64,000 nucleotides of DNA, taken from assembly GCA_965242965.1 (NCBI GenBank), contig OZ251518.1, positions 4,498,181-4,562,180 of the forward strand, written 5' to 3'. The position numbers were made by a program, and so were the translations under genes. The notes below the pieces were generated by a model that saw nothing but the letters and a program-made list of their open reading frames with translations, did no database searches and was not told the origin of the DNA. Source of the stretch: Candidatus Poribacteria bacterium. GTDB taxonomy: Bacteria > Poribacteria > WGA-4E > WGA-3G. The stretch's first letter is position 1. Each line of letters starts with the position of its first letter. Positions 3,001-50,536 of the stretch are shown piece by piece.

Positions 3001-3158
3001 CGACTGACGAAGTCAGAATCATCAAGTTTGAAAATCTTAATCCACTCTATGCGGATATCCGCCTCGGCACCCTTCGGGATAGCGAGGACAGAAACACCGA
3101 TGGCGAGGAGCAGGAAAACGAAAAACCTCGCCGATAAAAAAAGCGATTTCTTCATCAT
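1..3158 (-). CDS. large secreted protein with lamin-tail (LTD) domains; N-terminal ~1050 aa only, gene continues past window start
   Basis: Minus-strand ATG at 3158..3156 with GGAGAG RBS 8 nt upstream. Hydrophobic signal peptide (MMKKSLFLSARFFVFLLLAIGVSVLA). Open frame read by eye to position 1. Two LTD-like motifs (IVFNELGNGSGDADDWLELRNVTG...LKEWEL and ITFSEIMFDSGGG..WIELYN). Not in the ORF track because no stop falls within the window. Confidence 0.55.
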   Translation of the reverse strand, partial: MMKKSLFLSARFFVFLLLAIGVSVLAIPKGAEADIRIEWIKIFKLDDSDFVSRDDVDLDALPMLLRNRNQLRTGAPHRYAGSGPLREGMFGPEESYLRNSRDPYVKYVKIDLATGYPIGGEEVGSDDALGPGDIIGIAVRLQNVSAVRWNTNIRLDWANGGSGYTLRPNHHGFDLATTNLDAFTALYTYRIGTGETAENSGWLTDTPLIALPDGRIKEGGDWVDPGTLTWLGTLSLPAIDSIPPTIATDTETHRLTIAPPPAGQSGKSRYHEVRQTCLENHGLFGDDYIKACPHVEAPGWSTVALDEVTHEAAYYKAGDEIAITVRFSEPVKVSTDPAKQPTFYIKGDGYEAELKYKEGSGEDSLTFSLPVTEGQHTFGGLQVWSAAFWRNTHENFCRAPDTVRLETDEVRWIRDLAGNDFDTCVSLEKELEAFFTDMPALESIAHANPHPSYREENRPEIVAAYKKGIIKYLVDTIPATVWIPGLIKNGELLRHTDFTASDVQTGAFEVQFRFFNSIPPGPGGGSPAAIADEVGTSFTAEDVMLTGTGVNPADWDVEIAYVGLDHRGPNIVQNSASALVYKATITPALGFRGDVSISVPAGATQDIAGNESLASNRLPLPVDTALRVIETPEIVAPPAGAYTAGDKIEVEVTYDRENLRYEGDNPPYLTLYLGEEVPANARHAVWTASEDTNSTKVTFAYTVAATDTVAEAVRVPSVKIMVPEQTSLLSGPLGAPAERQSGTEAAAAASGTAPKTVPVVEPLPEVSPIVSDTPVVPVYPIFEEAAPKAAASEVPEAPIVFNELGNGSGDADDWLELRNVTGSAVSLKEWELSIVQDGKKEDTSLIVFPDASVQANGLLLITNSDPTAEGNALAGGDNVETAEVETKGSSHQYLIKSGLSLPDDGKFLLILRNAREKLGLNEAFVDVAGGGGSDTDAFVREQTGDYDTHVWPLQVLQAPGGDTEDALGSGKVWQRAKADIVGYHRDAWAESAFTGIGYDRKVTESAATSGTPGYPNGAVKPGSATPKGSITFSEIMFDSGGGTLPQWIELYN

Positions 3159-3774
3159 AAAATACTCTCCTGTATGAAATAGCGTGAATGGGAAAAAAGT
3201 AGCGTTCTCGGAGAAAACAGGGTAACCGCGGGCGGGTGCCCACGGTTATCCTGCCCCTTAATACCCCTAGTGGGGAGTGAATTTTCCCCGGAACAACGCT
3301 GGTAACCGTTGCATCGGACGATGCAACGCAAAAAGCCCCGTGGCAGGCGCGGACTCGCAAAGGCGAGCGCGTGCCACGAGGCGAAAGAAAATAGGCGCGT
3401 GCAAAGCACGCGGATTTTGGGTTGGAATTCAGATAATCTCCCCAGCTCGCCTTCCTGCTGAGAACGTCAGAGGTTAACGGGCATTTAGGACGGGGGGGGT
3501 AAATCTGATTATGTTCAGTGCAGTATCATCAACAGGACGCGCAAACGGAGACACGGCGCGCCGCCGGCGCGGCGGGCGCATCGGATGCAGACACTTCGGC
3601 GTATCCGCAGAAATGCAAGCGATTTGAGATGTCATGTTTCGCGCTCCTTTTCGTTGATGAGGGTTTACTATCGCACCAAATTTGTGTTAATGAATATATT
3701 ATACCACATTTTCGCGCGTTTGTCAAATTAAAATGTGATTTTTAACAGATTTCCGCGTTTTTTGTCAAAAAACT

Positions 3775-4165
3775 TGACTTAACCGTAGCGCGAGGGCCTG
3801 TCCCTCGCGAACGTTTGATTACCGTAACTTGTAGGTTGCGATCGCCCGATCTTGACCCTGTTGCGATCAGGCGATCGCAACCTACAGAGGGGGAAACTCC
3901 ATCGCGTCGACCTCACCGTAGGGCGAGGGCCTGTCCCTCGCGAACGTTCATCGCATCCCAGGCATGGCGGGGGACAGGCCCCCGCCCTACGGTGAAGAGA
4001 AGCCTGCTCCGACCACCGTAGGGCGAGGGCCTGTCCCTCGCGATCGCTCGATCACTGGAGCGTTTTCCCGATTCCCGTAGTGCGAGGGCCTGTCCCTCGC
4101 GAACTTTCATCGCGCCACGGGCACGGCGGGAGACAGGCCCCCGCCCTACGGTAAAAGGGCGGCGT
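3775..4165. repeat. family-A hairpin repeats flanking a family-E double-hairpin element (CTGTAGTT...CTACAGAG)
   Basis: Direct inspection. The same E element recurs at 7610-7680, 10470-10535, 11760-11850, 13670-13745, 16790-16855 and 50065-50125. Confidence 0.75.
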
Positions 4166-4169
4166 GCAT

Positions 4170-7100
4170 TCAATTCCGCGCTTCGGGAATAACCGTCAAC
4201 ATCACCCGAACCCCATCCCGCAAGACGACAACTTCAACCGATTCTCCGATTTTCACCGCATCCAAAGCGTAGGTGTAATCGTAGATATTGGCAATCTGTT
4301 GCCCGCCAAATTTGATAATCACATCGCCGCCTTTTAACCCTGCTTTATCGGCGGGACCGCCGGCGCGGACACCGGAGAGTTTCACGCCGGCAGTATCGGT
4401 GCTATAATCGGGAATAGTGCCTAAGTAAGCGCGAAGCGTGTCGCGCGAACCGCCGCCCGACTGACTCCGCTCAACTTCAACGTATTCGGGACGTTCCGCC
4501 GCAGCCGCGATGTCTAAAATCATGCTGTTTACCAACGCAACCACGCGCTCCATGCCTTCATAGTTGAGGTGCTCCACGTCATCGGTGGGACGGTGGTAAT
4601 CCTCGTGGGCACCGGTGAAGAAATTCAGCACCGGCACTTTTTTCGGATAGAACGCCGTCACATCGGTTGGCAAATACGGATCCGCCTGCAAGGTCAGGTT
4701 GAAACCGACAGGGACATTCTGCTTCTCAATCAGCGCGGGCCAGGCATTCGATGAGCCAACGCCTTGTAGGATCAGGGTGTTCTCTTCCAGCCGTCCCACC
4801 ATATCAAAATTGAGATACGCGGTGATCTGCTCCAACGGCACCACAGGATTTTCAGCGAAGTAAGAAGAGCCGATGATTCCGATTTCTTCCCCAGACCAGA
4901 GTGCGAAGATGATGCCTCTTGCACGTGTTTCGGGCGTTTTGCTGAGTCGCTCCGCCAATTCTAAAACGACAGCGGTGCCGGAGGCGTTGTCATCTGCACC
5001 GTTGTGAATCTGTCCTTCTTCGCCTTTCCGTGCGAGTGAACCTATTTCGCCGTAGCCGAGTCCGTCATAGTGCGCGCCGATGACGATGTATTCTGTATCA
5101 GGATGGGAGCCTGCTGCATCGGGACCGGGGGGCTCGCCTACAGCATCGAGACCGGAGGGCTCGCCTACAGCATCGAGACCAGAGGGCTCTCCTACGGGGA
5201 GTCGAGACCGGGAGGTCTCTCCTACGGGACTGACAGGCGGTAGCAACGCAATCACGTTCCGAGCGGTTTTCTTCACTTTTTCGACCGAAACGGTGATTTT
5301 GATAGTGACATCGGGCAGCGGAAATTGCCCGATAAAATGCGGATTCTCCACATCAAGTCCGGCTTGAACCTCTTTGAGTTGCTTTCCTGCGGGCGCGAAC
5401 AGCGCGTTCGCCACGGTATCGCTGATGGAGGCGGCGACGATGCCGGAATCAGCGAGGCTGTTATCAAAATCCAGCGGAATCAGTTTGCCGGCATTGGGCG
5501 AATTCGGTCCGGCGACAACGAGGAACGCCTTCGCGCCGCGTTCCCGCGCCTGCATCGCCTTATAGCGGAGTCCGGCGTATCTATTGAGTTCCTGCCGACG
5601 TTCAGGTTCAACTTCTTCGGGGACATACCGGAGTGCGAGGACGATTTTGTCGGTGACATCAATGCCGGCGTAGGCATCGTAGCCGACTCCCATTTCACCG
5701 GGGACGGTGAGTCCGTATCCGACGAAAACGACTTCGCCTTCAACTACGCCGTTTCGCGAAAAAGAGAGCGGCATAAAGTCAGTTTCCACGCCAAATTCCA
5801 ATGTTTCGTTTGTTTTTTGTGTGTGTCCCGCGTGCTGTCCGTCCTCTGTCGGCCGCGTGAGCCAGAAGCGATTTTCGTTTGGAATGAGTTTTCTGCCTGC
5901 GGTGAATTGGAATTTTTGAAAGTAGGCGGATTCAGAGGGCTCTCCCAATACCGCGGGATCGCGGGGGACAGGCCCCCGCGCTACGGTAGACGGCCGTTTC
6001 CCTTTCACCGTAGGGCGAGGGCCTGTCCCTCGCCATGCATCGGCAGAGTCAGAGGGCTCTTCTAAGACCGAGGGATCGCGGGGGACAGGCCCCCGCGCTA
6101 CGGTAGACGGCTGTTTCCCTTTCACCGTAGGGCGAGGGCCTGTCCCTCGCCATGCCTCGGAATCCGAAGAATCTCCTACCGGTATCAGGCCCAACTCCTT
6201 AAACTGTTCGGCGATGTAATTTGCCGCCTGTTTCGCGCCATCGGAGCCTGTCATCCTGCCTTCCAATGCATCGTCGGCAAGGAATTCAATATGCTTTCGG
6301 AGGCTGGTTTGCGTTCCGTTTGCTGGAGCGAGTTCATCATCCGGGACGTTCGTGTGCGCGCTTTCCGGTGCCGCCGCTAACGCCGATAATGCGGCTTGAT
6401 GATTCCACGCCGCCAGATAGAGCTGCGAAACATCTTGGCTGTTGCGGTTTGATGTCCAGCACAGTGTGTTTCCATCAGGCGAGAAGACCGGGAGTCCATC
6501 GAACCCCTCTGTGTGCGTCACGCGGATGGGTTCGTGCCGCCCGGCGGCATCCACCAAAAATAACTCAAAGTTGGAAAACCCGAACTTGTTGGAGGCGAAG
6601 ATGACATACGCGCCGGAGGGATGGAAATAGGGTGCCCATGACATGCTGTCAAAATCGGTGAGTCGTCTCACGCGCGAGCCGTCCGTGCGCATCGTGTAGA
6701 TGTCGGATTTACTTCCATCGGGTGTGAAGTGCCGCCAGACGATGTGTTGCCCATCGGGTGTAAAAAAGGGACCGCCGTCGTAACCCGGCTTATCTGTCAA
6801 CCGCTGCTGGTTTGAGCCATCGGCGTTCATGATGTAAATTTCGCCGAAATAGGCAGGATCGACTTCGAGCTGCTTCAATTCCTTCGGTGACAACCCGCTT
6901 TTGGGATATGCATCGCGCAGGGAGCAGAAAACGATGCGCGTGCCATCAGGCGAGTAAGATGCCTCCGCATCGTAGCCGGGGGCATCTGTCAACTGCTCAA
7001 GCTTACTTCCATCGCGCTTGGCAGAGAAAATGTCCATCGCCTCATCGTAATCCCAACTATAGCGGCGTTCCTTTCCCGACGCGCGAAATTCCAGTTCCTC

Positions 7101-7445
7101 CGCCTGCTTAGCAGAGGCGAATATATCGTGGTGCGTTGAGGCGTAAAGCACTTCATCGGTGCCGGGGCGAAAGAAGGCGCACGTCGTCTTCCCAACGCCG
7201 GTTGACACGCGGTGCGTATCGCCGCTCTTCAAATCCATGAGATAGATCTGGTAGAACGGGTTGTCGGGTTCACGTTCGCTCTGGAAGATGAGCGCGGTGC
7301 CGTTTTCGGAAAAGTATCCTTCTCCGGCGCGCTTGCCGCTGTAAGTTAATTGCCGCGTGTTGTCGAGGAATTGTGATTCTTCGGCAGCCGCGGAAATGGT
7401 GAAGCACAGCGCGCAAAGCACGCCTATCCATGTTATGAAACGCAT
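4170..7445 (-). CDS. secreted multidomain protease: TolB-like beta-propeller + PA/M28 zinc aminopeptidase + C-terminal PDZ
   Basis: 1091-aa ORF with ATG at 7445 and AGGAG RBS. Signal peptide present. Beta-propeller blades (SPDGTRIVF, SPDGNTLCWTS). M28 motifs (HYDGLG, NGADDNASG, SGEE, NFDMVG). PDZ region (GVKLSGVRAGGPADKAGLKGGDVI). Two repeat families are embedded in-frame (see findings). Confidence 0.7.
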   Translation of the reverse strand: MRFITWIGVLCALCFTISAAAEESQFLDNTRQLTYSGKRAGEGYFSENGTALIFQSEREPDNPFYQIYLMDLKSGDTHRVSTGVGKTTCAFFRPGTDEVLYASTHHDIFASAKQAEELEFRASGKERRYSWDYDEAMDIFSAKRDGSKLEQLTDAPGYDAEASYSPDGTRIVFCSLRDAYPKSGLSPKELKQLEVDPAYFGEIYIMNADGSNQQRLTDKPGYDGGPFFTPDGQHIVWRHFTPDGSKSDIYTMRTDGSRVRRLTDFDSMSWAPYFHPSGAYVIFASNKFGFSNFELFLVDAAGRHEPIRVTHTEGFDGLPVFSPDGNTLCWTSNRNSQDVSQLYLAAWNHQAALSALAAAPESAHTNVPDDELAPANGTQTSLRKHIEFLADDALEGRMTGSDGAKQAANYIAEQFKELGLIPVGDSSDSEAWRGTGPRPTVKGKQPSTVARGPVPRDPSVLEEPSDSADAWRGTGPRPTVKGKRPSTVARGPVPRDPAVLGEPSESAYFQKFQFTAGRKLIPNENRFWLTRPTEDGQHAGHTQKTNETLEFGVETDFMPLSFSRNGVVEGEVVFVGYGLTVPGEMGVGYDAYAGIDVTDKIVLALRYVPEEVEPERRQELNRYAGLRYKAMQARERGAKAFLVVAGPNSPNAGKLIPLDFDNSLADSGIVAASISDTVANALFAPAGKQLKEVQAGLDVENPHFIGQFPLPDVTIKITVSVEKVKKTARNVIALLPPVSPVGETSRSRLPVGEPSGLDAVGEPSGLDAVGEPPGPDAAGSHPDTEYIVIGAHYDGLGYGEIGSLARKGEEGQIHNGADDNASGTAVVLELAERLSKTPETRARGIIFALWSGEEIGIIGSSYFAENPVVPLEQITAYLNFDMVGRLEENTLILQGVGSSNAWPALIEKQNVPVGFNLTLQADPYLPTDVTAFYPKKVPVLNFFTGAHEDYHRPTDDVEHLNYEGMERVVALVNSMILDIAAAAERPEYVEVERSQSGGGSRDTLRAYLGTIPDYSTDTAGVKLSGVRAGGPADKAGLKGGDVIIKFGGQQIANIYDYTYALDAVKIGESVEVVVLRDGVRVMLTVIPEARN

Positions 7446-7905
7446 TTCAATTTTCTCCTATTGTGTGAGAGATCGCTACGGTGAAAAAAACGTGCCGATT
7501 CCCGTAGGGCGAGGGCCTGTCCCTCGCCAAGCCACGATCGCGGGGGAAACCCGCTCGCATGCGCGTATGGCATGCGAGGGCCCCCGCGCTACGGGAATTG
7601 AGCACCGCCTACTCCTGTAGGTCAAGATCGCCTGATCTTGACCTGTTTGCGATCAGGCGATCGCAATCTACAGAAGGGAAGCGCAAGGGCCTATCCCGCG
7701 CCAGGCTCTGGGGCACGGAACGATCGCGGGGGACAGGCCCCGCGCTACGGTGAAAAAACGTGTCGATTACCGTAGGGCGAGGGCCTGTCCCTCGCCATGC
7801 CACGATCGCGGGGGACAGGCCCCCGCGCTACGGGCCAAGAGGCGTTCCCCTCACCGTAGCGCGAGGGCCTGTCCCTCGCGATCGCACGCCGCACCAAGCT
7901 TTGCC

Positions 7906-8757
7906 CTACAAATACTGCGCCGCCATCTTTTTCAGGAACGCGAGGCCATCCGTGGCAAGACTCTCCGCACTCGGCGCGATATCACGCCAGATACAGGTTG
8001 CGGCGGCAATCTCTTTGACTGCCGGCGTAAACGACTCGATTACCAGCCATCTGTCGTAGTTCAGTTGCGCGAGCGCGCCGAATACGTCATCCCACGGGAC
8101 TAAGCCGGTGCCGGGGGTACCCCGGTCGTTTTCGCAGCAGTGGACATGATGCAACTGAGTGCCAGTGTCAAGAATGGCTTGCCCCTGGTTCTTTTCTTCG
8201 ATGTTCATGTGGAAGGTATCCAGATGCACCTTGAAGTAAGGGCTGCCGACTGCTTCGGCGAGTTTGACGGCATCCTCGGCGATGTTCACAAAATAGGTCT
8301 CGAATCGGTTGAGCGGTTCACTGGCGAGAGTTACGCCGTGCTTCCCCGCGAATTCAGCGACTTCCTGGAGTCCTTCGACGCACCAGTCCCATTCCTGCTG
8401 ATTCCTACCTCTGCCGACGAGTTTCCCGACGGCACTATACATCGGTCCGACGTATGTATCGCCGCCGAGTTCAGCGATGATCTCGATGGCGCGTTTGAGG
8501 TAAGTTTTGCCGTTTTCGCGCACGGCCGGGTCTTCGTCGATTGGGTTCCGGTCGGGGCTCATGATATTGCATCCGATGACTTGCAATCCGGTTTCTTTGA
8601 GAGTGGTTTGCGTATGCGGGATGTCTACCGTCTCGGGGTCAAAAATGGGAATTTCCACGCCATCAAATCCCATTTCGGCGACTTTCGGGATGAGTTCTAC
8701 CGTTTCGCGATCAAACTTATCTGCCCAGAGTAATAAATTGACACCAAATTTTGGCAT
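7906..8757 (-). CDS. sugar phosphate isomerase/epimerase (xylose isomerase-like TIM barrel)
   Basis: 283 aa with ATG at 8757. Typical AP-endonuclease-2/xylose-isomerase-like TIM-barrel motifs (GFDGVEI, HLDTFH, NDRG). Confidence 0.7.
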   Translation of the reverse strand: MPKFGVNLLLWADKFDRETVELIPKVAEMGFDGVEIPIFDPETVDIPHTQTTLKETGLQVIGCNIMSPDRNPIDEDPAVRENGKTYLKRAIEIIAELGGDTYVGPMYSAVGKLVGRGRNQQEWDWCVEGLQEVAEFAGKHGVTLASEPLNRFETYFVNIAEDAVKLAEAVGSPYFKVHLDTFHMNIEEKNQGQAILDTGTQLHHVHCCENDRGTPGTGLVPWDDVFGALAQLNYDRWLVIESFTPAVKEIAAATCIWRDIAPSAESLATDGLAFLKKMAAQYL

Positions 8758-8829: not shown

Positions 8830-9480
8830 AATGTTGGAGCAGGATATGGAGCAGGATATGAGCAGGATTTACAAGATTAGTCAAGATTGAGCAGGATTAG
8901 GAGCAGGAAACTGTAGTTCGGGAGCACCTGCTCCCGAAACGGCGCATGGCGAGGCTAACCCCTCTCTGGCCCGTAGCGCGGGGGCCTGTCCCCCGCGATC
9001 GTTCGATCTGCGCAAAAACCGCGCGCCGACCCAGGCCGTTTCCCCGATCGAGGCACGGCGAGGGACAGGCCCTCGCCCTACGGTAAACGGAGACGGCCTT
9101 GCATACCGTAGCGCGGGGGCCTGTCCCCCGCGATCGTCCGATCCGCGCGAAAAACGCACGCAGACTAACGCCGTTTCCCTCTCGATCGCGGCACGGCGAG
9201 GGACAGGCCCTCGCCCTACGGTGAAAGGAGACGGTCTTGCATACCGTAGCGCGGGGGCCTGTCCCCCGCGATCGTTCGATCTGCGCGAAAATCACCCGCC
9301 AACCAACGCCGTTTCTCGTTCCGATCGAGGCATGGCGAGGGACAGGCCCTCGCCCTACGGTCAGCGGCACGTTTTTTCTTCACCGTAGCGCGGGGGCCTG
9401 TCCCCCGCGAGCGTTCATGTGCCCGGTGGCATGGCGAGGGACAGGCCCTCGCCCTACGGTCAGCGGCACGATTTTTCAAA
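8830..9480. repeat. intergenic repeat block: family-F short tandem (GAGCAGGAT..) followed by about 7 copies of the family-A GC-rich hairpin element
   Basis: Direct inspection. Track ORFs 8881..9370 and 9216..9506 here are translations of the repeat. Confidence 0.8.
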
Positions 9481-9502: not shown

Positions 9503-10366
9503 CTAACGTGAGATAACGCCGTGTTCCTCAAGCCAACCTTTCAATGGGACATCCGCATCTTTCGGCGAGAAATGGCCATTGGCATTCGTGCCGCCGCCGA
9601 GCAGCTGTTGACGAATCGGGTCATTCCGGTCAAATATCTCCGGCGGGATAGTCATGTCATCTTTACTCCGCAGCCATCGGTATCCGTAGCCGTAGAAAAG
9701 CCCTTTGCGCGTGATGTCTGAATCGTTTTCGCTGCGCGCATGCCAGATACGCCGGTCGAAGAAAACGGCATCGCCGGGTTTGCAGCAGACCGGGATCGCG
9801 CCTTCGGGATGCGAACCGTCCTGCGGACGCTCTAAAGTATCCCACAGATGACTGCCCGGAATAATGTAGAAATTCCCGCGCCCGACTTCCGAACAATCGG
9901 AAAGCCAATAGACTACTTTGATGGAGAGACGCGGCCGCGGCGAGCTCTCAATCTCGATGTTGACGCGCCCGCTATCCTGATGCCAGCCGAGCGATGCCGG
10001 TGTGCCGCGAAGTTCCTCCAAACGCGGCGGCGTGATAATCAGATGACTATGATACGAATAGATATTCCAGCCTAACGCGCCCCACACCTTCGGGAACGTC
10101 TTATACCAATCCAGAATGTTGACAAACATCTGGTCCTTCCCGAGGAAATTCGGGTAGAAGAAGTTCTTGTCCGGGGTCATCGGACTTTTAGTGTAGGGAT
10201 CGTAGCCCGCGTCCAAATGTTGGTTGTAAATCCGATCAACGCGCGCCTCTAACCGCGCAACTAAATCTGGTGGTAAGGCGTTTTCGACGATGAAATACCC
10301 ATCCTCGTTCAACCCGCGGTGCTGCTCATCGGTGAGCTGGTGTTGCAGATGGCGTTCGTCAAGCAT
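9503..10366 (-). CDS. phytanoyl-CoA dioxygenase (PhyH) family Fe(II)/2OG oxygenase
   Basis: 287 aa. PhyH-like N-terminus (GYFIVENALP), WHQDSG and HARSEN motifs. Confidence 0.7.
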   Translation of the reverse strand: MLDERHLQHQLTDEQHRGLNEDGYFIVENALPPDLVARLEARVDRIYNQHLDAGYDPYTKSPMTPDKNFFYPNFLGKDQMFVNILDWYKTFPKVWGALGWNIYSYHSHLIITPPRLEELRGTPASLGWHQDSGRVNIEIESSPRPRLSIKVVYWLSDCSEVGRGNFYIIPGSHLWDTLERPQDGSHPEGAIPVCCKPGDAVFFDRRIWHARSENDSDITRKGLFYGYGYRWLRSKDDMTIPPEIFDRNDPIRQQLLGGGTNANGHFSPKDADVPLKGWLEEHGVISR

Positions 10367-10550
10367 AGATTTTTCCTCCTATGTAAGTGAGGGTGTTTCA
10401 TAAATCCGTTTCGGTATTTATCCTGCCTTGGAGGGCGGGCGAATACCGGAAGGTATCGGGCCCACCGCTGTAGTTCGGGATCGCCTGATCCCGAACGGGT
10501 CAAGATCGGGGGATCTTGACCTACAGGGGTGATGCGTCAGGAGGTCTCTC

Positions 10551-11504: not shown

Positions 11505-11977
11505 GGGGAAACTCCTTCGCAATCTCAACTATGATTTCATTTTACCATATTGCCGAAAATATTTTCAAGCGATTTTTTCAGGGTGTTTCATAACTCCGTT
11601 TCGGTAGTTATCCCTATTGGGAACGAATATCGAGCAAGCGATGTCCCCGTAGGAGAGACCTCCTGGTCTCGATTTTTCGTATCGGGACAGGGATGTCCCT
11701 CCTACCGGGAAAACATCAAGACTCCCGCTGTCGTTTGCAAGCACCTGAGCACAACCCGTTCAGGAGCAGGTGCTCCTGAACTACAGGCGGCGCGCACCCG
11801 AGCCCTGTAGTTCGGGTGCGCCTGCACCCGATCGGGTCAAGAGAAGACACGCCTGCCCGAGAGAATAAGTCTAGTAGTTTGCAAGTGCTTGTTAAAAAAA
11901 ACTTGACAAACTTCGTTTTTTGTAATAGACTGCATTGTAGAATCTGCACCCCGGTCTGTTTTTCATGGAGAAATTCT

Positions 11978-13642
11978 ATGACGACTCTACAAAAGAGCCT
12001 CATCGGCACCATCTTCCTCGGCATCTGTTTGGGATTGATGTGGCGCGCGGGACAAGGGATAGGGGACGCTAACCTCGTCTGGTATAGCGTAGTCCCGCCG
12101 TTGCTCGCTGTCACACTCGCTATTCTGACAACGCGCCTGATTTTAAGTTTGGGCATCGCTGTCGGGCTCGGGCTGGTGCTTGCTTGGATAAGACAAGACC
12201 GGACACCCTCTGGTTTCCTCGCGGAAGTAGTCTGGTTCGCTCGCGAGGTTAGCATCAAAAACGGCGATGCAATCGATCTCTTCAATATCTGGGTAATCCT
12301 GTTCGTTTTCCTGATTATGGCGACAATTTCTGTGGTGGTAGCATCGGGTGGCATTGCAGGCGTTGTGACGTGGCTGGCACGGTTTGCCAAGGGCCCGCGC
12401 TCAACGCAGGTGATTACCGCCGTTATGGGAATTGTCATTTTTATCGGTGACTATTCCAACGCCATGCTCGTCGGGCCGACGATGCGTCCCTTGACGGACC
12501 ATCATCGGGTGAGTCGTGAAAAGTTGGCATACATCGTTGATTCGACGAGCGCGCCGATTGCGGGGCTCGCGTTTGTCAGCACATGGATAGGCTATGAAAT
12601 CGGGCTTTTTAACGATGTCGCGAAATCGATCGGGATTGAACGCGATGGGTATTCGATGTTTTTTGATGCGCTCGGGTTTCGGTTTTACTGCATCCTGACG
12701 CTCATCTTTGTCATCGTCAACGCAATCAGTGGGAGAGACTATGGGCCCATGCGGAAAGCAGAAACGCGGGCACGCGAGACAGGCGCAGTCGCTGAACCGA
12801 ATGCCCAATTCCTGAAAGACACCTCATCGTCCAAACCCGCGTCACGTGCTGTCACACAGCCTTTTTCAGCGGTTTTGCCGCTGCTAACCCTTTTTACTCT
12901 GTTACTCGGTGGTTTCTGGATAGATGGCGCGGGGACAGGTTCGCTCCTCTCCCTCACGGCGTGGCGCGACGCGCTATCAAATGCAGATAACGTCAAAGTC
13001 CTCGCCGTTGCCGCCGCCAGCGGGTTCTTCGTCGCGCTTGTCTGCGCAGTCGGGCTATCCAAAATGCGATTTTCGGATATAGGCACCGCCGTATGGACAG
13101 GCGTGAAGTCTAGCCTCACGCCGTTGAGTATCCTGCTGTTGGCCTGGGGATTAAAAGCGAGTTGCGACAGACTCATGACTGGTGATTTTCTCGCGGCGAT
13201 GCTGCAGGATGTTGTCTCGCCGCTCTGGTTTCCTATCCTCGTCTTTGCGTGCGCCTCCGTGTGTTCCTTTGCTACCGGCACCAGCTGGGGCACTATGGCG
13301 ATTCTCATCCCCACCGCGATTCCCGTGGCATTCGCGCTTGACGGAGATGTCTACGGCTTGACTACCGTTATCTGTTTAGGTGCAGTGCTTGACGGGGCAA
13401 TCTTCGGAGACCACTGCTCACCGCTCTCGGATACGACAATCCTGAGTTCTATCGCGAGCAACTGCGCGCCGATACACCATGTCCGAACGCAACTGCCTTA
13501 CGCGCTCACCGTTGCAGGTATCGCCTTCGTATGTGGATACCTACCGGCGGCGTTGAACGTTTCTTCCGCTATCAGCATTGCAACTGGCACGGGGGTTATT
13601 GTGTTACTGTTTTATGGGTTGTCGCGGCTGCGTTCGTCTTAA
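11978..13642 (+). CDS. NhaC-family Na+/H+ antiporter-like membrane transporter (paralog 1)
   Basis: ATG at 11978 with GGAG 7 nt upstream, in frame with track ORF 11816. Polytopic membrane protein with NhaC-like conserved segments (GDYSNAMLVGPTMRP, YIVDSTSAPIAGLAFVSTWIGYE). Family call is moderate. Confidence 0.5.
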   Translation: MTTLQKSLIGTIFLGICLGLMWRAGQGIGDANLVWYSVVPPLLAVTLAILTTRLILSLGIAVGLGLVLAWIRQDRTPSGFLAEVVWFAREVSIKNGDAIDLFNIWVILFVFLIMATISVVVASGGIAGVVTWLARFAKGPRSTQVITAVMGIVIFIGDYSNAMLVGPTMRPLTDHHRVSREKLAYIVDSTSAPIAGLAFVSTWIGYEIGLFNDVAKSIGIERDGYSMFFDALGFRFYCILTLIFVIVNAISGRDYGPMRKAETRARETGAVAEPNAQFLKDTSSSKPASRAVTQPFSAVLPLLTLFTLLLGGFWIDGAGTGSLLSLTAWRDALSNADNVKVLAVAAASGFFVALVCAVGLSKMRFSDIGTAVWTGVKSSLTPLSILLLAWGLKASCDRLMTGDFLAAMLQDVVSPLWFPILVFACASVCSFATGTSWGTMAILIPTAIPVAFALDGDVYGLTTVICLGAVLDGAIFGDHCSPLSDTTILSSIASNCAPIHHVRTQLPYALTVAGIAFVCGYLPAALNVSSAISIATGTGVIVLLFYGLSRLRSS

Positions 13643-13975
13643 TATTTGATATGAGGGAAGTGTCGGTAGGTGCTCTGTAGTTTGTGATCGCCTGATCACA
13701 AACGGGGCAAGATCAGGCGATCTTGCCCTACAGAGTCTGGCGCGCGGACGCTGGCGAGGGACAGGCCCTCGCCCTACGGTGAAGTGCCGTTTTTTCCGTA
13801 GCGCGGGGGCCTGTCCCCCGCGATCGTTGGATTGCGCGAACGATATCGAGACCAGGAGGTCTCTCCTACCCGAAGGCAATCGAGACCAGGAGGTCTCTCC
13901 TACGGGGATGCATCGAAACCATTTTGAAAACAACGAGTTAAGAAACACCCTCATTTGATATAACGGAAAGGAATT

Positions 13976-15748
13976 ATGAGTTCTCGACTGAAAATCTTTA
14001 TCAGTGCCTTCGTCTTTATCAGCATCACGATTGCCTGCATCATCGGCGCACAGCAAGTTGATGAGGCAGAAGGACTCGTGTGGTATAGCGTCATCCCGCC
14101 GCTGCTCGCCGTCACATTAGCCATCCTCACGGCACGATTTTTCTTGAGTCTCAGCGTCGCTGTCGGCGCGAGCATCGTGCTGAGTTGGGTGAAGCATTAT
14201 CTGATGGCAGACGCGCCCACTGCCTCGCTGATTTCCAATCTTTTCGGCGAAGCCGTCTGGTTTGTCGGGAAGGTGGCACTGGACATGGAAAACATCTGGA
14301 TGGCGATTTTTGTCTTCCTGATTTTGTCAATGATTTCGGTGGTGGTATCGTCCGGCGGCATGGGCGGCATTGTCATGTGGCTCTCTCGGTTCGCGACGGG
14401 GGCGCGTTCTACGCAAGTCGTCACCGCTTTGATAGGCGTGTTTGTCTTTATCGGCGATTATACAAGCGCGATGTTGACGGGACCGAGTATGCGTCCGATG
14501 ACAGATAGGTTTCGCGTCAGCCGTGAAAAGTTGGCATACATCGTCGATTCTACGAGCGCGCCGATTACCGGGCTCGCCTTTGTCAGCACGTGGATAGGCG
14601 TAGAGGTAGGACTCTTCAGCGATATTTCCACCGAACTACAACTCGGACGCGATGGGTATTCCATGTTTTTTGATGCGCTCGGGTTTCGGTTTTACTGCAT
14701 CCTGACGATTATCTTCGTCATCATCAACGCAATCAGCGGCCGCGATTACGGTGCGATGCGCAAGGCATCAAACCGCGCGCGGGAGACAGGCGCGGTTGCC
14801 GCACCGAATGCCAAAATGCTCGGCGATCCTTCTTCTTTCACGAGCACGTCAAACGTCCACATGCAACCATTGTCCGCAATCTTACCACTCCTCACCTTGT
14901 TCACGATACTCTTGAGTGGGCTTTGGCTCACCGCCGTTTGGACGAGAGGTGAAGGAACAGGATTCATTTTTTCTCCTGCCGCGTGGCAAGCCGTGCTGGC
15001 GAACGTCAAAGCAGAGGGGAGAGAGCTCGGATTTATCCTCTCGCTTTCCGCATGGAGAAACGTGCTGACGACGCTGCAGACGGTGCAGATTCTACGGATG
15101 CTCGCCTGCGCAGCGTGCGGCTCACTCATCGTCGCAATTCTCTGCGCGCGCGGGTTATCAAAGCTACAATCTCTGGACATCCGCACCGCCGTTTTGGCGG
15201 GCCTCAAAGGGAGTCTTGTCCCCTTGGGAATTCTCGTCTTCGTCTGGGGTCTGAAAACCGGATGCAAGCGGTTGGAAACGGGACAATTCCTCGCGCTTAT
15301 TCTTGAAGGGAAGGTGCCGGCATTGGTATTCCCAATGCTCGTTTTTGCAACAGGGGCTGCATGCTCTTTTGCTACCGGTTCCAGTTGGAGCACAATGGCG
15401 ATTCTCATCCCCACCGCGATTCCCGTGGCGTATGCGATGGATGGCAACACCTATGGGTTGACGACGCTGATATGTCTCGGTGCGACACTAGACGGTTCTA
15501 TCTTCGGAGACCACTGCTCGCCGATTTCCGATACGACGGTTTTCAGCGCGATTGCCAGCAGCTGCGATCCGCTACACCACGTCCGAACGCAATTGCCTTA
15601 TGCGATTACGGTTGCGTTCATTGCGTTAGTGTGCGGCTATTTTCTCGCCGCGCTAGGCTTTTTCTCGCCGCTCTGCATTCTCATCGGCACAGGCGTGATT
15701 GCGCTGCTCTTTTTCGGTTTATGTCGCCTGCGCGATGCGGCGGCATGA
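13976..15748 (+). CDS. NhaC-family Na+/H+ antiporter-like membrane transporter (paralog 2)
   Basis: 590 aa. About 60% identical to the upstream paralog over the core (same GDYTSAMLTGPSMRP, YIVDSTSAPITGLAFVSTWIG blocks) with an extra insert. Confidence 0.5.
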   Translation: MSSRLKIFISAFVFISITIACIIGAQQVDEAEGLVWYSVIPPLLAVTLAILTARFFLSLSVAVGASIVLSWVKHYLMADAPTASLISNLFGEAVWFVGKVALDMENIWMAIFVFLILSMISVVVSSGGMGGIVMWLSRFATGARSTQVVTALIGVFVFIGDYTSAMLTGPSMRPMTDRFRVSREKLAYIVDSTSAPITGLAFVSTWIGVEVGLFSDISTELQLGRDGYSMFFDALGFRFYCILTIIFVIINAISGRDYGAMRKASNRARETGAVAAPNAKMLGDPSSFTSTSNVHMQPLSAILPLLTLFTILLSGLWLTAVWTRGEGTGFIFSPAAWQAVLANVKAEGRELGFILSLSAWRNVLTTLQTVQILRMLACAACGSLIVAILCARGLSKLQSLDIRTAVLAGLKGSLVPLGILVFVWGLKTGCKRLETGQFLALILEGKVPALVFPMLVFATGAACSFATGSSWSTMAILIPTAIPVAYAMDGNTYGLTTLICLGATLDGSIFGDHCSPISDTTVFSAIASSCDPLHHVRTQLPYAITVAFIALVCGYFLAALGFFSPLCILIGTGVIALLFFGLCRLRDAAA

Positions 15749-16667: not shown

Positions 16668-17262
16668 TTTAGTTGATTCCTCTTATTACGAAAAAAAACG
16701 GCACGTCATCGTAGGCTTGGGCCCTCGCATGCCACACGCGCAGGCGAGCGGGTTTCCCTCGCCATCGTTTTGCTGTCAGACTGCCTCACCTCTGTAGTTC
16801 AGGATCGCCTAATCCTGAACTGTTTGTGATCTGGCGATCACAAACTACAGAGAGGGCGCGCGAAAAAAAACGGCACGTCATCGTAGGGCTTGGGCCCTCG
16901 GATGCCACACGCGCATCCGAGCGGGTTTCCCTCGCCATGCACGCGCACTCCAACGTTCGCGGGGGACAGGCCCCCGCGCTACGGGAAAAAAACGGCACGT
17001 CATCGTAGGGCTTGGGCCCTCGGATGCCACACGCGCATCCGAGCGGGTTTCCCTCGCCATGCACGCGCACTCCAACGCTCGCGGGGGACAGGCCCCCGCG
17101 CTACGATGAAAAAAACGCCACCCCTGCACCGTAGGGCGAGAGCCTGTCCCTCGCCATGCTCCGGTCTGTCAAACGCTCGCGGGGGACAGGCCCCCGCGCT
17201 ACGGGAACATCGAGACTAGAGGTCTCTCCTACCGGGAAGAATTCGAGACCAGGAGGTCTCTC

Positions 17263-19079: not shown

Positions 19080-19905
19080 TTTTTGTCAATTTTATTGAGC
19101 AGGATTTCCAGGATTGAGCAGGATTTACAAGATTATACGAGCAGGATTTACAAGATTATACGAGCAGGATTTACAAGATTTGGCAAGATTATTTTTTCTT
19201 GTAAATCTTGTGTAATCGTGATAATTCTGCTCATGATGTGGCGAGGGTGTTTCATATCTCGGTGGCTTCCCTGTAGGAGAGACCTCCCGGTCTCGATGCA
19301 CGCGATGTCTTCCCTGTAGGAGAGACCTCCTGGTCTCGATGTGCCCGTAGCGCGGGGGACAGGCCCCCGCGAGCTCCATCGTCAAGGGGTGGCGTTTTAG
19401 GTCCTTTAGGTCCTACATGTCTATAGAAACACGTGTCGTGCCGTTTTCAAGGTCCTTTAGGTCCTTAATAAAAAACGCGCCGCATGTCAAAACCTATTAA
19501 GGACCTAAAGGACCTTCGCGTTCTTCGCGTTCGCGCGTGCTATAGACATTAAGGTCCTACGGACCTAAGAACCGTTTTTTCATCGTAGGGCGGGGCCCTC
19601 GGATGCCATCCGCGCATCCGAGCGGGTTTCCCCCGCGAGCGTTGGAGTGCGCGGACGATGGCGAGGGACAGGCCCTCGCCCTACGATGAACGGGGGTTTT
19701 CTGCCGCCGCGGCACAAGGCGGTGCGCCGCCCTATTGCATCGAGACCAGGAGGTCTCTCCTACCCGGAAAATATCAAGATATGAAACACCCTCCATCATC
19801 TTGTAAATCTGGTATAATCTTGCAAATCCTGCTCATATTCTGGTATAATCTTGCAAATCCTGCTCATATTCTGCTCAAATCCTGCTCAAAGAACGTAAAT
19901 CGCCT
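19080..19905. repeat. ~825-bp inverted-symmetric composite of nested repeat families F-G-B-A-C-A'-B'-G'-F' filling the whole intergenic region
   Basis: The left half (19080-19380) and right half (19560-19905) carry the same families in inverted order and orientation around a central family-C block (AAGGTCCTTTAGGTCC / TCTATAG, 19385-19575). Confidence 0.7.
19810..19849 (+). promoter_or_regulatory. two extended -10 like boxes (TGGTATAAT) carried on family-F repeat units upstream of the BatA-like gene
   Basis: TGGTATAAT at 19810-19818 and 19841-19849, 110-150 nt upstream of ATG 19961. Confidence 0.3.
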
Positions 19906-19960
19906 TGACAATAATAGTGCAATCACGTTATAATGTTTTTTGAAAGGAATCATAACAACA

Positions 19961-22441
19961 ATGCGATTTACCTATTTTTGGCCCGCATGGGCAGTAGCAC
20001 TCGGCATTCTCATCGCTATTGGCGTGACAACGTTCGTGTATCTGCGCATCGCTCGGCCGCTGCAACCGCGGCACACATTCTTACTGATTACACTGCGGAT
20101 ATGCGCCGTGGCGATGCTGCTCGGCTGCCTATTAGCACCTGTCACCATCGAAAAACGGGACATCACACCCCCGACGCATCTCGCCGTGTTAGTGGATACC
20201 TCGCAGAGCATGCAGTTGACAGATGCAGGAAACGTGTCACGACTCAATCAAGTCAAGGAACTGCTATTTGGGGACAGCGATGGAGAAAACGCGACCCCTT
20301 TCCTTCACTCCCTTACTGACAAGTTTGAGGTGCATGTCTATCCCTTTGGCACGGAACTTCACCCGATGGTGAGTCTGGAAGAGCAGGCGCAACGGTTCAA
20401 AACGGCAGATGCGCTCACCGATATCGGGAATGCCATCAAGCAAGCAGATGCGGCGTGGAAGGGACAACAGCGCGCCGGTATCGTGCTTATCACCGATGGC
20501 GCGCATAACGCCGGGGCACTCCCTATGGAAGCACTCGTTGCGCTGCAAATCCCTGTCTATGCTATCGGCGTGGGTGCCGTGGAGCCGCCAAAGGATATCC
20601 AGATTCAGCTGATTGACACCACCCCTGTCGCTTACACAGGACATGAACATCTTATCCGCGCCACCATTGCGCAAACCGGGTATACCGGCCAAACGACGCG
20701 GCTCGCGCTGCGAGAGGTGAAAAGTCAGCGGCTCGTCTCTTCAGCAACGCTGACGTTTGTAGAAGGTTCGCAACAGGTTGAATTCAGACTGACACCGGCG
20801 ACAGTGGGAAATTTTCAGTATACCCTCACATTGCCGACGCTTGAGGGCGAACTGACAGCGGAAAACAACGAAAAAACCTTCGCGCTCAAGGTAGTCAAGG
20901 CGAAGCTGAACGTCTTCTATTTAGAGGGAAGACCGCGGTGGGAGTATACGTTCCTGAAACGCGCTTTGGAACGCGACCCGGATATTGAACTGACATCGGC
21001 ACTTTTATCCAAGCGACCGGATGCGGAATCGGTGCTAAATCGTTCTGGGGGGTATTATCCGGTGGTTTCTGGTGAGTCCGGGGCATGGCGAGGGACAGGC
21101 CCTCGCCCTACGGTGAAGGAGGCGGCAGCCGGGGCTCGGCGAGGGACAGGCCCTCGCCCTACGATGGGGGAGATAGAGGCTCGGCGAGGGACAGGCCCTC
21201 GCCCTACGGTGGATGAGGCGGCAGCCGGGGCTACGGCGGCGGTTATCCAGCGATTTCCTGAAACGCGCGAAGAACTCTCCAAATACGATGTGCTGATTTT
21301 CGGTGAACTAACGGCGGAACATCTGACCGCGGTGCAACAACGGCTCATCGTTGAGTTCGTGGAGACAGAGGGACGCGCGGTTATCTTTCTCCCGTCGCGG
21401 AACGCGCTTAGCAGGCATGGACTCGGCACCACCGAACTCGCGCGGCTTTTGCCTGTCTCAATTCCTGTTACGGGCTGTGAGATGTCTGAAGCAGAGTTTA
21501 ACGTGCAATTGACGCAAACCGGGACGTTTCATCCGATGCTGCAACTTTCTAGTGCAAACAAACTTGCGCTGAATCGGAACGCCGCGTTATGGCGCAATCT
21601 GCCTGCACTCTCGCGGCTTTTTCGCGGTTTTCAACTGAGAGGCGGCGCGTCTGTGCTTCTGGATAGCGGAAAAGGCGAACCGGTAATGATTTTTCAAAGG
21701 ACAGGCTTGGGCAAAAGTCTCCTCTTCACAGCGGAGGGTTTATGGAATTGGGGTTTCGGCGTTTCAAACTTCAAGGATGCGCGGTATCTTACCCTCTATC
21801 CGCAGTTTTGGGCACAGGCACTCCGATGGATGGGCACCACACACTCCGACGAAAATCGGCTATACCTCACGACAGATACATCGACTTACGCGACAGGCGA
21901 CGCTGTCCAAGTAACTGCGCAGGTGTATTCTGAAACGTATCAGCCGCAAGCCGATGCAACGGTTCAGATTGAGGTGACACCGCCGGTGGGAGAACCGTTC
22001 CAGCTTCGGATGCGGACGGTTTATGGGGATATCAACGAACGCGAACGGGATACAGGAGAAAACGCTGAAGAGGGACGAGCAGGGGAAGAGAACCGATACA
22101 CGGCGCAATTTGAGGTGTGGGAGAAAGGGAACTATCGCATCCGCGCCACGAGCGGGACTGGCAGCACAGATAGAACCGAAATCTACGTTCAACCGCAACT
22201 CGCCGAATTGGAGGCACCGCAGTTAAATGAGGCGTTACTCAAGCGGCTCGCATCGCGAACCGGGGGTGCCTATTTCGCCATCGCCGATGCAGCACAAGTG
22301 CCTGAAAACATCGCGATTATCCAAGACCCGGTTTTTGTCGACACCGAACGCGATATCTGGGCGCATCCACTCGTCCTCATTCTCGTCGTTGGATTGCTCG
22401 GCACAGAGTGGTTATTACGCAAACGGAACGGACTGACATAA
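19961..22441 (+). CDS. BatA-like membrane protein with von Willebrand A domain
   Basis: ATG at 19961; the track's 19940 start is TTG. N-terminal TM helices and a VWA MIDAS-like motif (VLVDTSQSM). Repeat family A sits in-frame at 21085-21235 (AWRGTGPRPTV x3). Confidence 0.6.
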   Translation: MRFTYFWPAWAVALGILIAIGVTTFVYLRIARPLQPRHTFLLITLRICAVAMLLGCLLAPVTIEKRDITPPTHLAVLVDTSQSMQLTDAGNVSRLNQVKELLFGDSDGENATPFLHSLTDKFEVHVYPFGTELHPMVSLEEQAQRFKTADALTDIGNAIKQADAAWKGQQRAGIVLITDGAHNAGALPMEALVALQIPVYAIGVGAVEPPKDIQIQLIDTTPVAYTGHEHLIRATIAQTGYTGQTTRLALREVKSQRLVSSATLTFVEGSQQVEFRLTPATVGNFQYTLTLPTLEGELTAENNEKTFALKVVKAKLNVFYLEGRPRWEYTFLKRALERDPDIELTSALLSKRPDAESVLNRSGGYYPVVSGESGAWRGTGPRPTVKEAAAGARRGTGPRPTMGEIEARRGTGPRPTVDEAAAGATAAVIQRFPETREELSKYDVLIFGELTAEHLTAVQQRLIVEFVETEGRAVIFLPSRNALSRHGLGTTELARLLPVSIPVTGCEMSEAEFNVQLTQTGTFHPMLQLSSANKLALNRNAALWRNLPALSRLFRGFQLRGGASVLLDSGKGEPVMIFQRTGLGKSLLFTAEGLWNWGFGVSNFKDARYLTLYPQFWAQALRWMGTTHSDENRLYLTTDTSTYATGDAVQVTAQVYSETYQPQADATVQIEVTPPVGEPFQLRMRTVYGDINERERDTGENAEEGRAGEENRYTAQFEVWEKGNYRIRATSGTGSTDRTEIYVQPQLAELEAPQLNEALLKRLASRTGGAYFAIADAAQVPENIAIIQDPVFVDTERDIWAHPLVLILVVGLLGTEWLLRKRNGLT

Positions 22442-26100: not shown

Positions 26101-26775
26101 AGGCAGCCGGGGCTCGCCGTGCCTATCCAACGCGCTGCACTCGCTGATATGAACACGGCGATTTTCCAGTTGCTTAATGCCATGGCACAGATGAACCAAC
26201 AGATGGGTGCAAGCGGTTTGGAAAACATGATGGAGCAGTTGCAGCAACTCGCGCAAGGCCAAGAACAACTGAACCAGATGGCGCAGAATCTGAACCAGCA
26301 GATGCGGCAACAGGGGCAAACGCCGGGGCTTCAGGAGATGCTCAGGCAGCTCGCCGGGCAGCAGCAACTCATCCGTGAGGCAACCGAACGCCTCGCAGAG
26401 ATGGCAGAACAGATGGCGGAAATGCTCGGCAGCCTCAAGGATGTCGCCGAAGATATGACAGAAGTTGAGAAATCCCTTCAACAGGGTGAAATCAACCGAC
26501 AGGTTCTTGATAGACAGGAGCAAATTCTGACGCGGATGCTGGATAGCCTTAAATCGTTGCAGAAGCGCGATGTCGGCAAACAGCGGAAAGCACAGGTGGC
26601 GAAGAATCCGTCGACACCTGCACAGGAGGTGCCGCCGTTGCATCCTGACTTGCTCGAAATCGTGCGGAAGTTAGAGACTGCACCGAACGCAACCGAGGTA
26701 GAAAATATCCCGTTTCAATATCGGGAACAACTTCGGCAGTATTTCAAGCGGCTTTCACAGCGTTCAGACAACTAG
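23116..26775 (+). CDS. large membrane-anchored coiled-coil, Gln-rich protein (Bat-cluster large subunit-like)
   Basis: 1219 aa with AGGAG RBS. Two N-terminal TM helices followed by very long Q/E-rich coiled coils. Repeat family B sits in-frame at 23876-23960. Confidence 0.45.
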   Translation: MQRQNVNEAYQKIIGALRTVRWTWRWLTFSEGVLMCIGILACTMTGALVCFALPLPRWLRIAIILLGIGIGIWTLVWFLLRPLRRKLTDATVAAHLEKTEPAFQSRILSAVQLKGTLAENQFGYAPEFVEQLIFETAREVERIQPKQVFASEHRHIKQNAGVAGLAMGILLLTHFLWLPTAFKGFAQTFQAIPKTPQEVLNVQISDVHPGNINVEPGTDVTITANVSGHLGAPVALYYRIGSQYQEREGSSTVLHRDREGSPTGGSRDREVMHRDREVSPTETNRDGTEWHSLEMHRSLTEILYSATIENVDRALQYYITSKEVASEKYQIRVNREPGVKQFQMQLNSPAYTQLPPQTLEANVGDIYALFGTEVVFTGDSNKPLASAYLDFEESEDVSLEITESGETGARRGTGNGTATRIDGTFIARKSENYSIRLIDAENGLTNRNPIRYTVNVIKDAAPAVDIIEPARDSVLDDAMFVELKVEATDDYGIQALQLVYRVEREDAAEVNVPLKQWKPLAVQQSVFVTYTWDVDAVGMFPGETLAYYVQALDTDNISGPNVGKSLTYTLRFPSLSEMYDEISAEQQTEQHGIEELFDEQAEAAGLVDTLLDKIRKSQRLTLKDENLMQQVLETQEQIEEAAMSLVEDMKKTAADMEKNQLFDTETLQKYQELQELMEQALSEEHKELLRKLSEALATQELTEQEKALMEANLNQEQFLQQLERAKSLYEQLLLQQELEAAVKQAAALAEQQKELMDTLTAIEEGANAPQEGQPTDTPQSLAQKEDRVGSEVSQLQEKLDSLGEEMGKLAEKQESDAMGTPPQIGRLADEIERLNQFAREHQLTETLQDTSANLRSGQNQQALQSGREAEQTLTELAQGLDNALEFMEGANADAAQAAMRQAVTSALHLSHLHEKVLEETQALSSATTTENPVDGEIKQMQQLAAEELSASEGLERLATQLWELGTRQMEVEPEIVWRLNASNDALSRAARALEDRQPGLAVPIQRAALADMNTAIFQLLNAMAQMNQQMGASGLENMMEQLQQLAQGQEQLNQMAQNLNQQMRQQGQTPGLQEMLRQLAGQQQLIREATERLAEMAEQMAEMLGSLKDVAEDMTEVEKSLQQGEINRQVLDRQEQILTRMLDSLKSLQKRDVGKQRKAQVAKNPSTPAQEVPPLHPDLLEIVRKLETAPNATEVENIPFQYREQLRQYFKRLSQRSDN

Positions 26776-26934
26776 AGGCTTGGCGAGGGACAGGCCCTCG
26801 CCCTACGGTAAGAGAAGCCGTTCCGGCTACCGTAGCGCGGGGGCCTGTCCCCCGCGATCGTTTCAGGCCCCGGCGCGCGGGGGCCCTCGCAGGTTTCCAC
26901 ACGCGCGTCCGAGCGGGTTTCCCTTGCCATGCAA

Positions 26935-50525: not shown

Positions 50526-50536
50526 AAAAAGGCGTA

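Follow-up and report, generated by a model that had tools for sequence, protein, structure and literature searches.

In-frame GTAG-tagged REP elements of two families inside an exported protease gene of a sponge-type Candidatus Poribacteria genome

Repetitive extragenic palindromic (REP) elements of the GTAG- and CGTC-tagged superfamilies have been described in >80 species by Di Nocera, De Gregorio and Rocco in 2013 (PMC3733652). According to that study, REPs can also be located wholly inside open reading frames (ORFs), as single units, dimers or clusters encoding 20-82 aa. These intragenic copies are most numerous in Opitutus terrae (GTAG-tagged) and in Rickettsia conorii, where the CGTC-tagged elements are the Rickettsia palindromic elements (RPEs) RPE-4 and RPE-6, and it was suggested that flexible loops tolerate them (PMC3733652). 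Here, we describe two families of short palindromic repeats that are read through, in frame, within a 1091-codon protease gene located on a 64-kb stretch of a sponge-type Candidatus Poribacteria genome (contig OZ251518.1; the whole stretch is referred to below as the window). In-frame intragenic GTAG REPs are already known, and the present case is a further one, in a phylum for which we found no earlier report: a full-text literature search combining Poribacteria with "palindromic" returned only CRISPR-related papers.

All repeat families of the window follow a common plan, which consists of a GTAG head and then a short G+C-rich hairpin with a stem of 6-8 bp. The family A unit, whose hairpin has a 7-8 bp stem and a 5-nt loop, reads GTAG-GGCGAGGG-CCTGT-CCCTCGCC in subfamily A1 (stem variant GAGGG/CCCTC) and GTAG-CGCGGGGG-CCTGT-CCCCCGCG in subfamily A2 (stem variant GGGGG/CCCCC). 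The units of families B and B2 read GTAGGA-GAGACC-TCCT-GGTCTC-GAT and GTAGGA-GGGACA-TCCT-TGTCCC-GAT, respectively, and the family B hairpin has a 6 bp stem and a 4-nt loop. The stem differences between A1 and A2 and between B and B2 are compensatory, and Watson-Crick pairing at the variable stem position is kept in 52 of the 54 A copies. Strong covariation is also seen in family C, which has a conserved GCCT loop and stems that are highly variable between copies yet always complementary. The family A pattern, GTAGSGCGRGGGCCTGTCCCYCGC, gave 54 matches in 64 kb when up to two mismatches were allowed, versus 0.00 in 100 dinucleotide-preserving shuffles; the GTAG tag opens 54/54 of these matches, and families B, B2, C and E likewise open with it. 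Alongside these 54 A units, the window contains 24 B and 5 B2 units. When any GTAG followed by a perfectly paired stem of 6 bp or more was counted, 94 units were detected across the 64 kb (1.47 per kb), versus 2.0 in shuffles. Only 13 of the 83 A, B and B2 units are present in verified genes, the remainder being extragenic (64-kb window plus related loci), and the intergenic DNA of this genome is saturated with REP units. Family A units are usually arranged as a head-to-head A2/A1 doublet with a spacer of ~25 nt, which is REPIN-like (REPINs being REP doublets); arrays also occur, and single 24-nt units are common. No Rfam family scored above the gathering thresholds for these repeats.

These features agree with those of the described GTAG REPs and REPINs (PMC3733652; Bertels and Rainey 2011, PMC3116915), which also have a GTAG head and a 6-9 bp stem-loop, form several families per genome, occur as singles, head-to-head dimers and clusters, and are mainly intergenic with some copies wholly within ORFs, most richly in Opitutus terrae of the Planctomycetes-Verrucomicrobia-Chlamydiae (PVC) group. 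Four of the five defining REP features were found, the fifth being a cognate transposase gene (see below), and as judged from sequence, the elements are lineage-specific GTAG-tagged REPs. The present case differs from the described ones in that the phylum Poribacteria is new as a host and the consensus sequences are new, in that a single gene has two to three families stacked in it, with as many as four sites among its orthologues, and in the copy-number turnover between close strains and the very high local density of ~1.5 units per kb. An earlier note on this DNA, made from the letters alone, had compared the in-gene repeats with RPEs. The part of this comparison that stands is that coding sequence has been colonised in frame without killing the gene; the elements themselves are GTAG REPs and REPINs. 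RPEs (Ogata et al. 2000/2002, via PMC10969869 and PMC3733652) are likewise palindromes present in frame in functional, unrelated genes, to which they add peptides without loss of function, and they too are found both in and between genes. However, the short RPE-4 and RPE-6 are tagged CGTC and RPE-1 is ~150 bp long, whereas the elements described here are 24-nt GTAG units and ~80-nt doublets without sequence relationship to RPEs, in an extracellular sponge symbiont of another phylum with a genome of ~5.7 Mb. Because tag, size and sequence all differ, the inserts act like RPEs but are not RPEs.

The protease gene is located at positions 4170-7445 on the minus strand and consists of a single ORF of 1091 codons, predicted to encode an exported PD40 beta-propeller/PA/M28 zinc aminopeptidase/PDZ protein. 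Pfam domains are the PD40 repeats, PA (residues 570-682), Peptidase_M28 (780-972) and PDZ (1018-1085), and in Foldseek the structural model of the protein matched TolB propellers as well as 2EK8, an aminopeptidase that contains a PA domain (628 alignment columns, 412-residue target). Six orthologous genes were compared at the DNA level with the window gene, making seven genomes in all. The ORF is intact in 7/7 genomes, each gene has a length divisible by 3, and the dN/dS values are 0.11-0.16 at a dS of 0.12-0.62 (Nei-Gojobori, window gene versus the six orthologues, 967 ungapped codons). Because of these seven intact genes, all multiples of three in length, and their low dN/dS values, we take the protease gene to be functional and under purifying selection. 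It might be argued that the gene is a pseudogene in decay or an artefact of the assembly, since repeat-rich regions misassemble easily and REP arrays make spurious ORFs elsewhere in the window. This explanation is highly improbable: seven independent assemblies, which include short-read scaffolds and megabase contigs, all carry the gene intact in frame, the dN/dS values are those of a constrained gene, and the catalytic and domain regions are conserved across the aligned orthologues. The pseudogene objection that the earlier note had raised against itself is answered by the same data.

Both repeat families were confirmed in a single frame of this unbroken ORF, and the peptides quoted in the earlier note, "PVGEPSGLDAVGEPSGLDAVGEPPGPDAAG" and "AWRGTGPRPTVKGK[QR]PSTVARGPVPRD", the second of which is present twice, are exact in the translation. 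The inserts occupy two sites, at both of which Tandem Repeats Finder detected arrays: one of 27 nt x 4.2 at 5109-5225 and one of 117 nt x 2.0 at 5925-6160, with a 93% match. Site 2 (5100-5237 on the minus strand, aa 737-782) contains four family B units read in sense, frame 0, at 5119-5141, 5146-5168, 5173-5195 and 5202-5225, which encode peptides of the PVGETSRSRL and PVGEPSGLDA types. These units are degenerate 23-nt variants that, as a set, have lost their excess structure (RNA fold z +0.42).

Site 1 (5925-6182 on the minus strand, ~aa 422-507) is a composite insert with the organisation B'-[A2/A1]-B'-[A2/A1]-B', in which B' is a decayed B unit and a 117-nt module is duplicated. The first A doublet (5961-6033) consists of A2 at 5961-5984 with GTAG on the minus strand, a 25-nt spacer, and A1 at 6010-6033 with GTAG on the plus strand, and encodes AWRGTGPRPTVKGKRPSTVARGPVPRD. 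The second doublet (6078-6150) has the same arrangement, with A2 at 6078-6101 (minus), a spacer and A1 at 6127-6150 (plus), and encodes AWRGTGPRPTVKGKQPSTVARGPVPRD. All four A units are 24/24 identical to the consensus, and the mRNA strand of 5925-6175 is predicted to fold into two near-perfect hairpins of ~85 nt (minimum free energy -153.2 kcal/mol, z -8.68). B-like remnants were detected at ~6153-6182, 6037-6064 and 5933-5945 when the sequence was aligned locally with the B consensus (shuffle p <= 0.0005). The spacers flanking the A doublets are therefore decayed B units and site 1 is composite, so that family B is present there alongside the A doublets on which the earlier note had remarked. 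Insert length is divisible by three, a check that the earlier note had proposed: site 1 amounts to 2 x 117 nt, and site 2 to +120 nt relative to the empty allele of locus L081. Tryptic peptides predicted to span the inserts include GTGPRPTVK and GPVPRDPSVLEEPSDSADAWR.

Alignment with insert-free orthologues, which had also been proposed, shows that the segments are additions. Most protease orthologues are 986-988 aa long and have nothing at site 1 or site 2, and close relatives (75-95% identity) are 1020-1143 aa long, with the length difference located almost wholly at these two sites. At 35 distant loci, site 1 reads just "P[VI]GDE.." without GTAG, and families A and B are confined to the 11 most closely related of the 89 loci examined. 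On these comparisons, the segments are regarded as insertions and not as ancestral sequence. Where orthologues carry inserts at these two sites, these consist of the same REP DNA as in the window, always in frame. The number of A units at site 1 varies from 0 (L081, which has a decayed B unit alone) to 7 (L082), and that of B units at site 2 from 0 to 4, with nothing at this site in L081, in L001 or in any distant orthologue. L001 has A units at site 1 in another frame and arrangement than the window gene. The L081 protease gene (3001-6195) contains two further in-frame GTAG-REP sites, neither of which is present in the window gene: an array of family E, GTAGGCGCGCTTTCCAAGCGCGC, after "WLTRQT", with four units encoding (D/G)(A/S)RL(E/K)SAPT, and a B-like unit inside the M28 domain, which encodes PVGGLPGPDIE. 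The distinct frame and arrangement in L001, together with the two extra sites in L081, therefore indicate that the protease gene has been hit repeatedly and independently. Moreover, insert architecture differs between genomes already at dS = 0.12, and unit turnover is therefore fast relative to point substitution. The idea that the ancestral "PVGD" codons already contained a GTAG target was rejected, as none of 35 insert-free orthologues has GTAG there; the GTAG found in the "empty" L081 and L011 alleles is part of a decayed B unit.

The same hairpin is translated in different ways. Family A is read as RGTGPRPT (antisense), as VARGPVPRD (sense) and once, in L001, in a third frame as ARDRPSPY; for family B, the protease gene uses the sense orientation (VGEPSGLD) and a neighbouring gene of 1219 codons described below the antisense one (RDREGSPT). 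Five of the six frames of a unit are open, the sense +1 frame holding the TAG of GTAG, and the frames in use are stop-free ones that encode hydrophilic peptides only. Because the identical hairpin is read in several frames and in both orientations, the unit of inheritance is the DNA hairpin and not the peptide. The possibility raised earlier that the same peptides would occur without DNA-level repeats was not borne out, since carriers have the same DNA repeat in several frames and both orientations. We also considered that the segments could be native low-complexity linker repeats whose likeness to intergenic DNA is secondary. Although the tandemly repeated peptides resemble natural linkers in their richness in Gly, Pro, Ser and Thr, the segments are missing from all distant orthologues, match dozens of copies between genes at 24/24 positions, differ in reading frame and orientation across genes and lineages, and produce an mRNA hairpin signal (z -8.7) that coding does not explain. 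A native linker origin is thus extremely unlikely.

A further observation on the hairpin itself concerns its loop. Family A units in which the 5-nt loop is inverted (ACAGG for CCTGT), with the stem and GTAG orientation unchanged, are present at 19347-19370 in the window, at protease site 1 of L084 and in the gene of protein P0151. In coding copies, this inversion converts RGTGPRPT into RGPVPRPT, and L084 indeed reads "AWRGPVPRPTV". Such loop inversions suggest that the hairpins really extrude in vivo. In addition, a 42-nt repeat, GGATGCCACACGCGCATCCGAGCGGGTTTCCCTCGCCATGCA, mostly adjoins A units; its copies are located at 16727-16768, 16900-16941, 17022-17063, 19601-19642, 26892-26933 and 34613-34654.

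The position of the inserts in the protein was studied with an AlphaFold2 model, which was built on a 79-sequence alignment and is of modest quality (mean predicted local distance difference test score, pLDDT, 58). Residues 425-504 and 740-780 have pLDDT values of 25-33 (25-30 at site 1, ~28-33 at site 2) and are modelled as coil without secondary structure. In the model, site 1 is located between helix 402-417 and strand 509-520, and site 2 is flanked by strands 721-735 and 786-792. From the Foldseek matches to 2EK8 and TolB, which give a position at module level only, both inserts are assigned to the PA/M28 module, and they are predicted to form disordered loops inside this 2EK8-like aminopeptidase module. 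A sequence search of the PDB did not place the inserts, its alignments beginning only past site 2. Site 2 ends a few residues ahead of the GAHYD motif, which we take to supply zinc ligands in family M28. The earlier suggestion of linker peptides between domains is thus correct to the extent that the inserts are predicted to be disordered loops between Pfam hits, but they do not separate propeller, peptidase and PDZ from one another.

Two neighbouring genes contain in-frame units as well, as had been noted previously. The BatA-like gene (19940-22441, plus strand) encodes an 833-aa membrane protein with a VWA domain and has three A units at 21088-21207 (21088-21111, 21139-21162 and 21184-21207), which are antisense to the gene and encode RGTGPRPT three times. 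Its insert amounts to +153 nt relative to L086, again a multiple of three. The BatA-like orthologues contain 0 (P0157/L086 and all distant ones), 1, 2, 3 or 4 clean A copies, with a fifth, degenerate unit in P0149, and the array periods are 45 or 51 nt. The second gene (23116-26775, plus strand) encodes a DUF4175-like membrane protein of 1219 aa. Its site I (~23838-23977) is a B array antisense to the gene, with units at 23880-23903 and 23934-23957 plus degenerate neighbours, encoding RDREGSPT-type peptides; its site II (~24325-24372) is the remnant of a single, decayed A unit, which encodes GARRGTGNG. In L086, site I of this gene is almost empty and site II has four A units, and L087 and L088 are different again. 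The spacer GGAGGCGGCAGCCGGGGC of the window array (21118-21135 and 21214-21231) is, within the window, unique to the BatA-like gene, and a near-identical spacer separates the A units at site II of the L086 DUF4175-like gene (L086 ~9700-9900), which suggests, at the sequence level, that array modules have been exchanged between these two genes. All other REPs of the window that fall within ORFs were rejected as coding, because they are located in spurious ORFs made by the arrays, or 5' of where the cyclophilin and GFO/IDH/MocA genes really start.

The DNA identity between in-gene and dispersed units, their absence from outgroups, the preservation of frame, the purifying selection on the host gene, the predicted disorder of the inserts and the turnover in copy number are, in our view, very probably best explained by REPs and REPINs having inserted in frame into loops that tolerate them, with units then being gained and lost in tandem. 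A REP-associated tyrosine transposase (RAYT) would move the units in the form of single-stranded hairpins, because the GTAG-plus-hairpin architecture is what defines REPs (PMC3733652, PMC3116915). The few copies that landed in genes would have survived only if the added length was a multiple of three, if the frame was free of stops, and if the encoded Gly/Pro/Arg/Thr/Ser-rich peptide sat in a surface loop tolerant of a disordered extension; insertions in other frames or positions would have been purged by selection. Once resident, units plus flanking spacer would be gained and lost as modules in tandem, through slippage or unequal recombination, because non-REP spacer has been duplicated along with the unit both in the 117-nt module and in the BatA modules of 45/51 nt, and copy number would therefore come to differ between close strains. 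Older copies would lose their hairpins, because the B arrays have lost structure while the A doublets are perfect. The encoded peptides would be neutral.

Several points weigh against this proposal. REPs typically have a cognate RAYT (TnpA-REP, a Y1 HUH transposase) flanked by REPs, and analysis of the window identified none: Pfam found no RAYT among the 21 window ORFs scanned, and neither did tblastn of the window with an E. coli RAYT query, which is to be read as a lead only. With a mean pLDDT of 58, the disorder at both sites could partly stem from the insert being missing in most alignment rows. Neutrality of the peptides is an assumption. Finally, the single BatA A unit of L087 is flanked by an imperfect ~14-nt direct repeat that is present once in the empty L086 gene, a duplication not predicted by IS200/IS605-type transposition, and a MITE-like or repair-mediated route may account for it. 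Transposable elements of the miniature inverted-repeat type (MITEs) would be deletion derivatives of insertion sequences (IS), moved by a DDE transposase with target-site duplications, instead of RAYT-mobilised REPs; a parent IS was not detected in the window. The bracketed L087 insertion would fit such elements, as would the lack of a RAYT in the window and the A doublets, which as ~80-nt inverted repeats are within the MITE size range. Bacterial MITEs (ERIC, BOX, Anabaena MITEs, QMITE1; PMC10969869) are also small non-autonomous hairpin repeats that are sometimes translated in host ORFs. However, they have IS-matching terminal inverted repeats and target-site duplications and are often AT-rich, whereas the units described here have a GTAG tag and a high G+C content and can be only 24 nt long. 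Families A, B, B2, C and E all open with GTAG and then a short hairpin, the defining REP tag (PMC3733652), single 24-nt units are common, and stems covary between subfamilies. The flanking duplication can equally result from the unit plus spacer having been duplicated in tandem. We therefore regard a MITE origin as unlikely and favour REP insertion followed by tandem turnover.

Neutral insertion can also be set against selection for the inserts themselves, either as strain-variable, contingency-like cassettes of the envelope surface or as functional linkers. All three host proteins look extracytoplasmic or membrane-bound, as their translations have an N-terminal signal-like sequence or a transmembrane segment; copy number varies among very close strains, L001 was hit independently in the same loop in a different frame, and only hydrophilic frames are in use. 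Intragenic tandem repeats at contingency loci similarly consist of in-frame units of strain-variable number that alter the length of exposed segments. In the present case, however, the unit is a dispersed genomic hairpin copy and not a gene-specific repeat, and phase-variable (frame-shifting) behaviour was not observed. Outgroups function without the inserts, the peptides change with frame and orientation, the units are identical to intergenic copies, the purging of harmful frames predicts the frame bias equally well, and the sample is three genes. An adaptive role of the loops is thus doubtful; its sole positive support is the cellular location of the three host proteins. We would give similarly little credence to the more speculative idea that the REP system generates protein diversity, in which in-gene arrays of exported and membrane proteins would vary exposed loops for selection by host or phage, and the ~85-nt hairpins may tune translation or mRNA stability.

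The insertion of REPs described here extends the reach of "selfish" palindromes within working proteins to an uncultivated phylum of sponge symbionts, of which it is an unusually dense and fast-turning example. Features of moderate interest are the stacking of several families per gene, the recurrent hits at the same loops, the rapid strain turnover and the persistence of intact ~85-nt hairpins under purifying selection. The two ~85-nt hairpins in the coding region provide a test case for how ribosomes and the replication machinery deal with extreme secondary structure, and the variable in-gene arrays are ready strain markers for Poribacteria populations. There are also consequences for annotation, because REP arrays both lengthen real proteins and create many spurious small database "proteins". 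Public protein collections contain at least 143 clusters (50% identity) of 59-281 aa "proteins" that are REP-array translations. Peptide searches for REP-bearing proteins returned 24 matches in a word-indexed search and, in a full HMMER search of representatives, these 143, all of them short ORFs of 59-281 aa that translate REP arrays, and therefore do not yield a proteome-wide census. Within the window, stop-free frames of REP arrays that look gene-like, with 90-350 codons, are located at 7750-8103, 8897-9370, 16890-17219, 26744-27037, 34723-35112 and 50122-51193. Doublets of family C, ~63 nt each, are present at 3830-3892, 7616-7678, 10469-10531, 11729-11791, 13676-13738, 16793-16855 and 50059-50121. 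The JGI metagenome collection, which does not include this lineage, contains the exact A1 unit once, at positions 1524-1548 of L089. L089 is an unrelated contig of 4958 nt with 61% G+C and no other A or B units, and the match is a coincidence or else a distant instance of the same hairpin.

Some further observations were made around these genes. Two inverted repeat arms of 86 nt, 86% complementary and rich in the AGGTCCTTTAGGTCCT motif, at 19396-19481 and 27043-27128, bracket the block of BatA-like, DUF4159 and DUF4175-like genes. A promoter-like module (TTGCAA, 18 nt, TATAAT) is present in tandem copies upstream of the BatA-like gene (regions 19094-19180 and 19808-19890), and its reverse complement is located upstream of a divergent alanine-racemase-like gene. 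Downstream of the DUF4175-like gene, L086-L088 encode a Type ISP restriction enzyme, and the window has a PIN-domain ORF at that position instead. A DndE-family (DNA phosphorothioation) protein is encoded at 58071-58436, adjoined by large ORFs at 54649-58064 and 59017-63204. Finally, two tandem paralogous Na+/H+ antiporter genes (11816-13642 and 13976-15748) share ~72-74% DNA identity, and their arrangement is kept in relatives.

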